Source: Flavobacteriales bacterium
GTDB taxonomy: Bacteria; Bacteroidota; Bacteroidia; Palsa-965
Length of the DNA: 64,000 bases
Assembly: GCA_040377305.1 (NCBI GenBank)
Contig: JBEIPA010000010.1
Coordinates: 96,001-160,000, forward strand
Direction: 5' to 3'
How positions within the stretch are numbered: position 1 is the first letter of the stretch; each line of letters opens with the position of its first letter. This document shows, one piece after another, positions 19,234 through 22,242 of the stretch. Made by a program: the position numbers and the translations under genes. Below the pieces are notes generated by a model. That model did not search any database, was not told where the DNA came from, and saw only the letters and a program-made list of their open reading frames with translations.

Positions 19234-19938
19234 CTACTCCGAAACCTTTTCCGCCGCTTCCTCCAGCAAATGCGCCTTCTCATCTCCCAGATATTTCTCC
19301 ACGATCCAGTGGAAGAGATAAATGAGCGGAGTCAATCCAATTGCGATCATTAGTTTGAAAATGTAATTGGTTGCGCCGGTGCTCATCCATTGCGATATCG
19401 TGAAGATTCCGGGAACAACGAATCCGATGAACAAGACAATGAACGTATCGATGAGCTGAGAGATGACCGTTGATCCGGTAGCGCGCAACCAAATGTACTT
19501 CCCTCCAGTTCTCTTCTTGAAATACCAGAATACGAATGAGTCAACGAGTTGTCCGACGAAGAACGCGGTGATACTACCTGCGATAATCCACATCGATTGC
19601 CCGAAGACCGCGTTGAATTGTTCGTCGTTCACAACACCCGGAACAACAAACGCCTTGGGTTGCATGGCGAGGTAGACGATCAGAAATGTGATGGCGATCA
19701 TTACGGATGTGATGACCGAAACCATTCTCAGAATTTTTCTCCCGTAATATTCGTTGATGATGTCGGTTGTAAGAAATACAATCGGCCAAGGCAGAATACC
19801 GACTATAGAAACGTAAGTTCCCATGCTACCGAGATCAATCTGGAACAACTTGGAACTGATCAACTCCGCCGTCACCGCGCAGGTAATGAACACTGCGATG
19901 AGCACTATGAGCAGACGTGTAGGTTTGTTGAGTTTCAT
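19234..19938 (-). CDS. yhhQ: Queuosine precursor transporter (Vut_1/YhhQ)
   Basis: FLTTDIINEYYG, GSITAFFVGQLVD, WLRATGSTVISQLIDT; ATG 19938 preferred over TTG 19977, which lies inside repeat copy 1. Confidence 0.88.
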   Translation of the reverse strand: MKLNKPTRLLIVLIAVFITCAVTAELISSKLFQIDLGSMGTYVSIVGILPWPIVFLTTDIINEYYGRKILRMVSVITSVMIAITFLIVYLAMQPKAFVVPGVVNDEQFNAVFGQSMWIIAGSITAFFVGQLVDSFVFWYFKKRTGGKYIWLRATGSTVISQLIDTFIVLFIGFVVPGIFTISQWMSTGATNYIFKLMIAIGLTPLIYLFHWIVEKYLGDEKAHLLEEAAEKVSE

Positions 19939-19964
19939 CTGAAGTAAATATAAGCACAGATAAT

Positions 19965-20277
19965 CTTGAGGTGCCAAATTGGTACTTCAAGTTGCTGTTG
20001 GGCAGTGCTTTTCCAGTGAAATCTTGAGGTGCCAAATTGGTACCTCAAGTTGTTGTTGGGCAGTGATTTTCCAGTGAAATCTTGAGGTGCCAACTTGGTA
20101 CCTCAAGTTGCATTTTGGTGGTGTTTTACCACTGAAATCTTGAGGTGCCAATTTGGTACCTCAAGTCGCAGGTTGCGGTGTTGTACCATGAAATCTTGAG
20201 GTGCCAATTTGGTACCTCAAGTCGCAGGTTGCGGTGTTGTAACATGAAATCTTGAGGTGCCAATTTGGTACCTCAAG
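19965..20277. repeat. Array of six 27-bp palindromes CTTGAGGTGCCAA[A/C/T]TTGGTACCTCAAG separated by 29-31 bp related spacers
   Basis: Copies start at 19965 (one C>T), 20023, 20081, 20139, 20195, 20251; periods 58,58,58,56,56. Confidence 0.97.
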
Positions 20278-20304
20278 TTGACACAGGATTTAATCAATAC
20301 TTTA

Positions 20305-20312
20305 TATATTTG
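20305..20312 (+). promoter_or_regulatory. Bacteroidota sigma-A -7 element for the ORF6N gene
   Basis: TATATTTG 27 bp after the last repeat and 42 bp before ATG 20355. Confidence 0.65.
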
Positions 20313-20354
20313 CACATATAATTCACTATTTATCCATCTATATACCAATTTAAT

Positions 20355-20930
20355 ATGAAAGCGACAAAAAGATCAGCAATACCGAATGAAAGAATCATGA
20401 ATCGGATTTATTTCATTCGGGGACAAAAAGTGTTGATCGACAAAGATCTGGCATCACTCTACGCCGTTGAAACCAAAACATTGAATCGTGCTGTTCAACG
20501 TAACATCAAAAGGTTCCCGGCCGACTTTATGTTCCAACTCACTCCTGAAGAGACTGAAAACTTGAGGTACCAAATTGGCACCTCAAGCTGGGGCGGTAAC
20601 AGAAGAATGCCACATGTATTCACCGAGCAAGGTGTTGCCATGCTTTCAGGTGTTCTAAATAGTGAGCGGGCAATAATGGTGAACATTCAGATCATGCGCG
20701 TCTTTACGGAAGTCCGCAAAATGTTATTCGATAACTCCGAACTCCGCCTTGCTATTGAGCAAATCAGAAAGAAGACAGAAAACAACACGAAAAATATTGA
20801 AGTGGTTTTCCGGTATTTCGACGACTTTCTCGCGGCAAAAGAAAAAGAGAAACGCAAAGCAAGGAAATCTCCAATTGGATTTAAGCTCCCGAACACGACA
20901 CGAAAAAAAGTGGTTCGCAGAAAATCATGA
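20355..20930 (+). CDS. ORF6N-domain (KilA-N-like) DNA-binding protein
   Basis: IRGQKVLIDKDLASLYAVETKTLNRAVQRNIKRFPADFMFQLT...FTEQGVAMLSGVLNSERAIMVNIQIMRVF; coiled coil and PIGF tail. Confidence 0.9.
   Translation: MKATKRSAIPNERIMNRIYFIRGQKVLIDKDLASLYAVETKTLNRAVQRNIKRFPADFMFQLTPEETENLRYQIGTSSWGGNRRMPHVFTEQGVAMLSGVLNSERAIMVNIQIMRVFTEVRKMLFDNSELRLAIEQIRKKTENNTKNIEVVFRYFDDFLAAKEKEKRKARKSPIGFKLPNTTRKKVVRRKS
20561..20587. repeat. Intragenic copy of the 27-bp palindrome
   Basis: CTTGAGGTACCAAATTGGCACCTCAAG, the exact reverse complement of array copies 4-6; encodes (N)LRYQIGTSS. Confidence 0.97.
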
Positions 20931-20945
20931 GTGCTGTTCTAACTG

Positions 20946-20978
20946 AATCTTGAGGTACCAATTTGGCACCTCAAGATT
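20946..20978. repeat. Downstream copy of the palindrome, extended to 33 bp and overlapping the bioA stop
   Basis: AATCTTGAGGTACCAATTTGGCACCTCAAGATT; core 20949-20975 is the exact reverse complement of copy 2. Confidence 0.97.
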
Positions 20979-22242
20979 GTTTTGCACTCAGAAATTCCTG
21001 AATACTATTAAACACTTTCCGGAGTTGCTCGCTGGAAATGCAATACGGCGGTATCACATAAATCACATTACCAAGTGGCCGGATGATTATTCCGCGTTCG
21101 TGAAAAAATGGCGCGACCTTCTCTCCTACTGCTGCGAGATAACCGTGCTCTTGCGATTTCAACTCAACGGCCAATATGGTTCCACATGCCCGTGCATCTT
21201 TTACAAGAGGGTTTCCCAGAAACCATTCAGCTGCTTCGCGCATTGATTCAATCAGTCCTTGTATCTCGTTCCTGGTCTTCGGCAATTCAAGCAATTCTAA
21301 ACTAGCTACACTTGCTGCGCATGCCAACGGATTGGCGGTGTACGAATGCCCATGAAAGAATGTCTTCGTTCGATCTGCGGTTTCGTATGCAGAATAAATT
21401 TCCTTCGTACACAATGTTGCACCCAGCGGCATGAATCCACCCGTCAATCCTTTTGACAAACAAATGATATCCGGTTTGTGTTTGCAGCCGTCTGTCGCGA
21501 ACATTTTTCCTGTGCGACCGAATCCAGTCATGACTTCATCGGCGATGGTTATCACGCCGTGTTGCTTACACACTGCAATTAAGTTGTCAAGTGCGGCGTG
21601 CGAGTACATGATCATTCCAGCAGCACCTTGCACGATGGGTTCGAAAATGAATGCAGCCGAATTGGCATCGAGGGTTTTCTTAAGCGCGGTTATTGATTCC
21701 TCTTCTCTTCCTGGTACAGGAACCGGGATGTGAATCACTTCAAACAAAAATGGACTGAACGCGTTGCTGAAAACATTTCTTGCACCAACGGACATACTTC
21801 CGAACGTATCTCCGTGGTATGCGTTTTCAAATGCAATTACTTTTGTGCGTGGAGTTACTTTGTTGTGCCAGTATTGGAAGGCCATTTTCAGTGCGACTTC
21901 TACTGAAGTTGAGCCATCGTCACTGTAAAACACCTTGTCCATGTAAGGCAACTGTGATTTCAGTTTTTCGGCGAGAGCTACTGCAGGTTCATGTGTGTAT
22001 CCCGAAAACAACACATGCTCCATCTGATCGAGCTGCTGTTTGATTGCTTTCGTGATATGCGGATTGCAATGGCCGTGAATGTTCACCCACCAGGATGAAA
22101 TGGCATCGATATAGGTGTTGTTGTTTTCATCGAACAACAGTGCTCCTTTGCCACGAACCATGGCAACATTAGGTTCGGTGCCAATTTGTGGTGTGAACGG
22201 ATGCCAGATGTGTTGCTTGTCGCGATCGGAAAGAGAACTCAC
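20971..22242 (-). CDS. bioA: Adenosylmethionine-8-amino-7-oxononanoate aminotransferase
   Basis: IWHPFT, DAISSWWVNIHGH, YHGDTFG, DEVMTGFGRTG, SKGLTGG, HGHSYTAN. Confidence 0.96.
   Translation of the reverse strand: MSSLSDRDKQHIWHPFTPQIGTEPNVAMVRGKGALLFDENNNTYIDAISSWWVNIHGHCNPHITKAIKQQLDQMEHVLFSGYTHEPAVALAEKLKSQLPYMDKVFYSDDGSTSVEVALKMAFQYWHNKVTPRTKVIAFENAYHGDTFGSMSVGARNVFSNAFSPFLFEVIHIPVPVPGREEESITALKKTLDANSAAFIFEPIVQGAAGMIMYSHAALDNLIAVCKQHGVITIADEVMTGFGRTGKMFATDGCKHKPDIICLSKGLTGGFMPLGATLCTKEIYSAYETADRTKTFFHGHSYTANPLACAASVASLELLELPKTRNEIQGLIESMREAAEWFLGNPLVKDARACGTILAVELKSQEHGYLAAVGEKVAPFFHERGIIIRPLGNVIYVIPPYCISSEQLRKVFNSIQEFLSAKQS

Follow-up and report, generated by a model that had tools for sequence, protein, structure and literature searches.

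Palindromes in and around an ORF6N gene covary with its predicted helix and are likely binding sites of the encoded protein

A 64,000-nucleotide stretch of a Flavobacteriales genome (hereafter, the window) contains an ORF6N gene and eight matching copies of a 27-bp palindrome. These eight palindromes are likely binding sites of the ORF6N protein itself, as judged from the covariation of their inner bases with residues 41, 42, and 45 of the protein, and the predicted binding probably serves self-control. The palindrome is a feature of the whole family and is not special to this locus; the window is a clear-cut example, as its eight sites all match and a concerted switch is seen at a sister locus.

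A first-pass annotation had placed six copies upstream of the gene, one in frame within it, and one 18 bases past its stop codon. A pattern search of the window confirmed all of these positions (starts at 19965, 20023, 20081, 20139, 20195, 20251, 20561, and 20949), and the chance expectation for the pattern was 0 in 100 shuffles. The observation that the motif did not recur elsewhere in the window could be extended to the whole 5.17-Mb genome, in which just these 8 copies were found when up to 4 mismatches were allowed. The upstream array (19965..20277) consists of six palindromes in 56–58-bp tandem units, with start-to-start spacings of 58, 58, 58, 56, and 56, and all six match the helix code described below; copy 1 (19965) has one mismatch more than the other copies. 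The inner asymmetry GTGCC..GTACC of the six upstream copies is found in the opposite orientation, GTACC..GCACC, in the internal and downstream copies. The array linkers were 61–97% identical to each other, compared with 93–100% for the palindromes. Because the linkers are related yet less conserved than the palindromes, the array is a tandem expansion and not a repeat-plus-unique-spacer arrangement; a CRISPR array, which requires unique, unrelated spacers, was therefore rejected. A REP/BIME origin, which requires copies dispersed genome-wide, was also rejected, since the 8 copies lie at one locus and a profile search gave 13 family matches in the genome, 12 of them at ORF6N loci. The suspicion that the motif is a genome-wide REP unrelated to ORF6N was thus not borne out.

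The in-frame palindrome (20561..20587) encodes L70-R-Y-Q-I-G-T-S-S78, which forms the end of helix 64–74 and the start of a low-confidence loop. The downstream palindrome (20949..20975) includes the stop codon (20971–20973) of a convergent bioA-type gene. A promoter-like TAnnTTTG element, TATATTTG (20305..20312, plus strand), with a putative promoter role, lies 27 bases past the last array copy and is also present at −54 in the related genome G211; we take TAnnTTTG to be the Bacteroidota −7 promoter consensus. A sigma-70 promoter scan gave matches at chance level only. In a host-regulon scan, the inner 15–17-bp core was found nowhere in the host beyond this locus and half-sites occurred at Markov expectation, so that the only predicted target of the protein is its own locus. 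Two further perfect palindromes were observed in this genome: one that lies away from any ORF6N gene and shares the CAAATTG centre (G000:C15:85521), and one of another type with AACCTTAAAGGTT arms (G000:C30:238195), which is present in L008 too.

The possibility that the array is a misassembly was checked against contigs from two studies. Contigs from run X1, possibly the window's own source, covered 19500–20162, 20193–20274, and 20249–21400 with zero differences, and contigs from run X2, from another study, covered 19701–20162 (2 differences) and 20133–20218. The contigs of the two studies cover most of the array; none of them spans it whole, and the exact copy number depends on the genome assembly.

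The array, the gene, and the downstream copy lie together at 19939..20975, between the bioA-type gene and a Vut_1 gene. In the relatives G204, G156, and G210, which have an empty site, the bioA stop codon overlaps the Vut_1 start codon, indicating that the array, the gene, and the last copy are one insertion, which begins 26 bases before the first palindrome and ends at the downstream palindrome. Among 22 same-genus loci, a few of which end at contig edges, G211 was the only other one with an ORF6N gene at the Vut_1 site. The flanking genes belong to the biotin pathway and to housekeeping functions. In the four neighboring genes scanned, an XerD-like integrase 1.2 kb away was detected and, aside from it, no reverse transcriptase or dedicated recombinase. 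In G209, the insertion between bioA and Vut_1 is a different small ORF of 68 aa (L039:1280-1486) with no Pfam match above cut-off, which suggests that this junction takes up small genes repeatedly. In G218 (L045:408-1501), bioA and Vut_1 lie ~1.1 kb apart without an ORF6N match.

The insertion boundaries and the empty sites of the relatives would also fit a small mobile cassette whose ends are the outer palindromes, used in insertion or excision. Gene fragments that stop at the palindrome (L028, L074, and L125) and the patchy occurrence of ORF6N, which was present in 89 of the 201 genomes examined from this class, speak for such a cassette. However, copies on both sides were found at just 3 of 146 genes, no target duplication was seen in the empty-site alignments, no spread in the genome was detected, and no catalytic family or fold was matched by the ORF6N protein in Pfam, PHROG, NCBIfam, PADLOC, or fold searches. 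The cassette could still describe how the unit moved, but it leaves the helix code unexplained, and we regard it as very unlikely indeed. For lack of a catalytic match and of spread in the genome, the earlier suggestion of a minimal selfish element also went unsupported. An insertion sequence or MITE was rejected on the absence of a transposase match together with the rarity of both-side copies and the lack of a visible target duplication. ORF6N fragments start or stop at or near the palindrome in L012 as well as in the three loci above, hinting that the palindrome is a rearrangement hotspot.

The ORF6N gene (20355..20930, plus strand) encodes a protein of 191 aa that matched Pfam ORF6N (PF10543) with an E value of 4.7e-35 and 120.2 bits, above the curated cut-off of 27.8. 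Three PDC-S05 models of PADLOC matched the protein (best E 4.7e-63), which places it within PDC-S05 by HMM, and its PHROG matches were anti-repressor families. No match was obtained in NCBIfam, a PDB sequence search returned coiled-coil noise only, and the BstA family was absent among the Pfam, PHROG, NCBIfam, and PADLOC matches. The protein model has a compact alpha/beta N-terminal domain and long C-terminal helices (104–141 and 145–169). Its matches to APSES and related winged-helix folds were weak (Dachshund Z 5.3, Ski Z 4.9, Mbp1 Z 3.9; best Foldseek E 0.07), and nothing exceeded background. As the matches to DNA-binding domains are weak (Z 3.9–5.3), the assignment of the predicted helix 40–49 (TKTLNRAVQR; codons at 20472..20501, plus strand) as a recognition helix rests mainly on covariation, that of K41, T42, and R45 with bases ±7/8, ±5, and ±4, respectively. 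Homologues of the protein number in the thousands. A fusion to a Rha domain (PF09669) is seen in the close homologues P0006, P0007, and P0087. ORF6N genes often occur in tandem (L188, L190, L024, L016, L033, L316, L201, and L264), and the neighbors usually differ in palindrome variant.

The palindrome was analyzed in a family sample of 139 loci chosen by protein alone and containing 146 full ORF6N genes; the loci comprised 110 of ~190 class-wide matches, a genus set, and the paralogues, with loci of unpublished genomes excluded. The class and genus tallies and the palindrome profile include a few unpublished genomes (G094, G180, and G208), and the main counts are independent of them. The arms paired at 10 or more of 12 positions in 119 of the 138 ORF6N genes with an anchor, compared with 1.2% of synonymous-codon controls, and a control region of the same genes had paired arms in 0 of 146. 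Eight of the 119 internal palindromes sit in another reading frame. At ±4, the paired fraction was 0.93 against 0.33 expected, and the variable positions covaried, whereas the three central bases were uncoupled (0.69 paired vs 0.68 expected). Sense-strand mismatches were A-C in 29 cases and G-T in 21, giving no bias toward RNA wobble (G-U) pairs. The covariation of the arms, the uncoupled centre, and the absent G-U bias together indicate that the constraint acts on DNA.

These data bear on whether the palindromes act as RNA hairpins, either terminators or processing sites. Three upstream copies score as terminator-like, and across the family many downstream copies begin at most 35 bases past the stop codon. 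Besides lacking a G-U bias, however, the palindromes show one mismatch here that is G-U on opposite strands in the upstream and internal copies, Rfam gave only sub-threshold matches to miRNA models, and hairpins leave the helix code unexplained. An RNA role is therefore considered extremely improbable.

Exact matches to the 25-mer were obtained across many phyla: of at least 122 (42 with short flanks), 89 lay in ORF6N genes, 16 beside one, and 17 had none in view, so that, among the matches listed, 105 of 122 fall within or next to such a gene. A similar picture emerged from tandem arrays identified by their DNA pattern, 31 of 35 of which lay in or beside ORF6N genes. In a search for phage decoys, the exact 25-mer was present on just 2 viral contigs, each of which also encodes an ORF6N protein. 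Arrays of three or four copies with no ORF6N in the fetched flanks were seen in L216, L229, L244, and L248, one of them on a viral contig.

What the palindrome tracks is the predicted helix of the protein. The code was derived from 304 distinct genes, 276 of which had a parsable helix (28 of 304 were dropped because the helix pattern failed). For residue 45, 158 class and viral genes with one internal site were used, 10 of which were left unscored; the residue predicted the base at ±4 in 147 of the 148 genes that could be scored (Q→A, E→G, R/K→C), an in-sample figure because the rule was drawn from the same gene table, with only the flanking-copy and other-frame tests examined after it was fixed. 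Reading of G by R/K and of C by E is standard recognition chemistry. On a tree built without the helix and palindrome columns, there were 43 base changes, 43 residue-class changes, and 43 joint changes. In 74 disjoint nearest pairs, both had changed in 29, neither in 44, the DNA only in 1, and the residue only in 0 (p 1e-19). Residue 41 tracked ±7/8: of 162 half-sites that go with T40-K41, 161 had G at −7 and 149 had G at −8 (pair test p 2e-8). Position ±5 loosely tracked residues 42 and 45, and no residue explained the outer bases ±10 to ±12. The code was matched in 67 of 71 cross-phylum loci chosen by the exact 25-mer, and a matching site was present in cis in 255 of 268 genes, the other 13 being without a fully matching site. 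The site therefore covaries with the residues of its predicted reader, as in an autoregulatory pair.

Copies flanking the gene were present at 49 of 146 genes, mostly 20–140 bases before the start or just past the stop, and were absent at 97 of 146; the three genes with copies on both sides all tracked the internal copy fully. The expectation that flanking copies follow the internal one held here, in G211, and in L208, and it held above permutation, but family-wide only a minority did so: 4 of 18 upstream (p ~0.006) and 4 of 9 downstream copies (p ~0.01) lay within 2 mismatches of the internal copy. Beside an intact internal site, 17 of 54 upstream half-sites matched the code (17.4 by chance), compared with 15 of 28 downstream half-sites (9.3 expected). 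With upstream copies at chance level, many flanking copies appear to be relics or to serve other proteins. A flanking copy matched the code in 19 of 22 genes without a matching internal site and in 24 of 77 with one (p 5e-6; both sets include loci chosen by DNA pattern). The spacings of non-coding copies peaked at 42–44 and 63–64 (21-bp period, R 0.58), the search pattern having a floor of 42; helical phasing of the copies was set aside on account of this floor and because the spacing of the present array (56 and 58) lies off both peaks.

The covariation could also arise with no binding at all, if residue 45 coevolves with residue 75 or the two belong to one recombined block, and if the palindrome is a by-product whose symmetry is maintained by template switching. 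Residue 75, which the palindrome encodes, tracks ±4 as well as residue 45 does, the uncoupled centre resembles a hairpin loop, flanking copies could be left over from former internal ones, and template switching is reported to perfect inverted repeats in bacteria (PMC5941160). However, the code also holds for all 9 of the 9 sites that lie in another frame and encode an unrelated peptide. At genes that lack an internal site, 16 of 16 half-sites of the neighboring non-coding copies fit it (4.7 expected); these come from 7 genes, 3 of them probably orthologous. Furthermore, the columns between the helix and the palindrome scarcely track ±4 (best p 6e-4, compared with 4e-15 at residue 45), and matching flanking copies are preferentially kept by genes whose internal copy has been lost or no longer matches. 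We consider an origin without binding to be very unlikely.

A different role for the array, as a cassette reservoir from which the encoded peptide is diversified, had been among the first proposals for this locus. The peptide is variable across 120 close homologues, arrays elsewhere hold mixed variants (L100, L231, and L222), and hybrid palindromes with arms from two variants exist (L128 and L181; also observed in L170 and L239). Every copy here, however, is the gene's own variant, and the scanned neighborhood offers no reverse transcriptase or dedicated recombinase apart from the XerD-like integrase. A site that changed without its helix was found in only the one pair of 74 noted above, indicating that the gene does not tolerate replacement of its site by a stored variant. 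The cassette store is largely refuted and has, in our estimate, a highly improbable standing.

Binding by the gene's own product, the preferred explanation, agrees with the sites of this locus and its relatives. Residues K41, T42, and R45 predict GG at −8/−7 and C at −4; in the 16 half-sites of the eight copies, C at −4 and G at −7 were found in 16 of 16 and G at −8 in 15 of 16. Residue 45 differs among the three ORF6N paralogues of this genome, being R, E, or Q, and the corresponding sites are of the C, G, and A type. The second paralogue (L002:1559-1680; G000:C24:77195-77300) carries the palindrome in frame at three places, separated by 39 and 42 bases; two of these copies match its E45 helix (G sites), the middle one being a Q-type variant. 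In G211, the orthologue is 76% identical and the helix has changed from KTLNRA to RNLNKA. Its copies (two upstream, one internal, and one downstream) are all of another, T-rich variant with TTGATGTTCC arms (one arm TTGAAGTTCC), and R41, N42, and K45 are accompanied by T at −8 and −5. As helix and copies are both altered, the concerted change follows the helix. The earlier proposals that gene and repeats behave as one unit and that the protein recognizes a site in its own coding sequence are supported by this covariation, the latter strongly at the level of sequence.

A mechanism can be proposed in which an ORF6N dimer, suggested by the long C-terminal helices of the model, would read the two half-sites. 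Binding within the gene and next to the promoter may limit the gene's own expression or tether the protein at its own locus; a bound site within the gene could block elongation, and the last array copy lies 27 bases from the promoter-like element conserved in G211. The upstream array may have arisen by tandem duplication of the site plus linker and would add binding capacity. Template switching from one arm to the other probably maintains the symmetry at the outer positions (±10 to ±12). Differing helix/site pairs would prevent cross-talk of paralogues in one cell. The purpose could be self-repression alone or the self-restraint of an anti-phage protein.

Sites within the binder's own gene are already known, including the lambda ori iterons in gene O, parS in spo0J, lac O2, and the PurR box in purB. 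In these, as here, a binding site overlaps coding sequence and is sometimes arrayed. What is new is a site that forms a constant part of the binding domain's coding sequence across many phyla and diversifies together with its reader by a three-residue code; no partner gene for replication, partition, or metabolism is linked to the ORF6N gene. The REP and Rickettsia palindromic elements are also short palindromes, some of them in frame in genes, but the ORF6N palindrome is not dispersed as they are, with its genome and cross-phyla matches concentrated at ORF6N (12 of 13 and, among those listed, 105 of 122 exact matches). RacA with ram and pSK1 Par with its centromere are alike in architecture, with a winged helix and a coiled coil acting on clustered sites, although the fold matches to them were weak and within background (pSK1 Par Z 4.1; RacA E 0.66), and their sites serve segregation and lie outside the gene's codons. 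Clustered palindromic sites are reported to enhance RacA binding (PMC4914108).

A close parallel is BstA, a KilA-N-like defence protein that is suppressed by a cognate DNA element, aba, overlapping its own gene (Owen et al. 2021, PMC8585504). Both systems combine a small protein, KilA-N-like in BstA and putatively so here, with a short element that overlaps its gene and that acts, or in the case of the palindrome would act, as DNA; in BstA, variant proteins have cognate elements and multiple copies suppress in trans (PMC8585504). The aba element, however, is 63 bp long and includes a direct repeat at the gene start; the text of the paper contains 'palindrom' 0 times, its passages covered here report no recognition code, and BstA is presented as a prophage gene with shown abortive infection (PMC8585504). 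The ORF6N gene has biotin-pathway and housekeeping genes as neighbors. One PDC-S05 gene reduced T7 and T5 plating ~1000-fold in E. coli (10.1101/2024.09.26.614923), although this tested member has a RhuM and not an ORF6N domain, and a DNA site is unmentioned in the portion of the preprint available (10.1101/2024.09.26.614923). A profile comparison of ORF6N and RhuM, based on a single sequence, showed no similarity. Visual inspection of RhuM-family loci (L331–L357), without a control, showed a related palindrome close to the start of the domain in 23 of 26. Given the PDC-S05 match, the protection conferred by a RhuM-type member, and the BstA/aba precedent, an aba-like role for the ORF6N palindromes is plausible by analogy. 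Far more tentatively, ORF6N proteins, with RhuM and their kin, might be undescribed single-gene anti-phage sentinels that are bound to the palindrome of their own gene and freed when the site is lost or out-competed, with orthogonal pairs set by the three-residue code and arrays serving as amplified self-restraint sites; we hold this broader scenario to be possible but doubtful.

The palindrome and its code are real and family-wide, and apparently unpublished; no description of either was found in the full-text literature covered, which consisted of main texts, mostly of papers outside subscription. ORF6N genes, which are common but had no known target, gain a predicted target and a code, legible in the sequence itself, that links residues to bases. 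Small DNA readers whose 25-bp sites are orthogonal represent a rare model of protein–DNA coevolution under a double constraint, as the site is also made of codons, and they are a possible source of orthogonal repressors. The finding is also a starting point for understanding how single-gene defence candidates, PDC-S05 among them, may avoid harm to the host.
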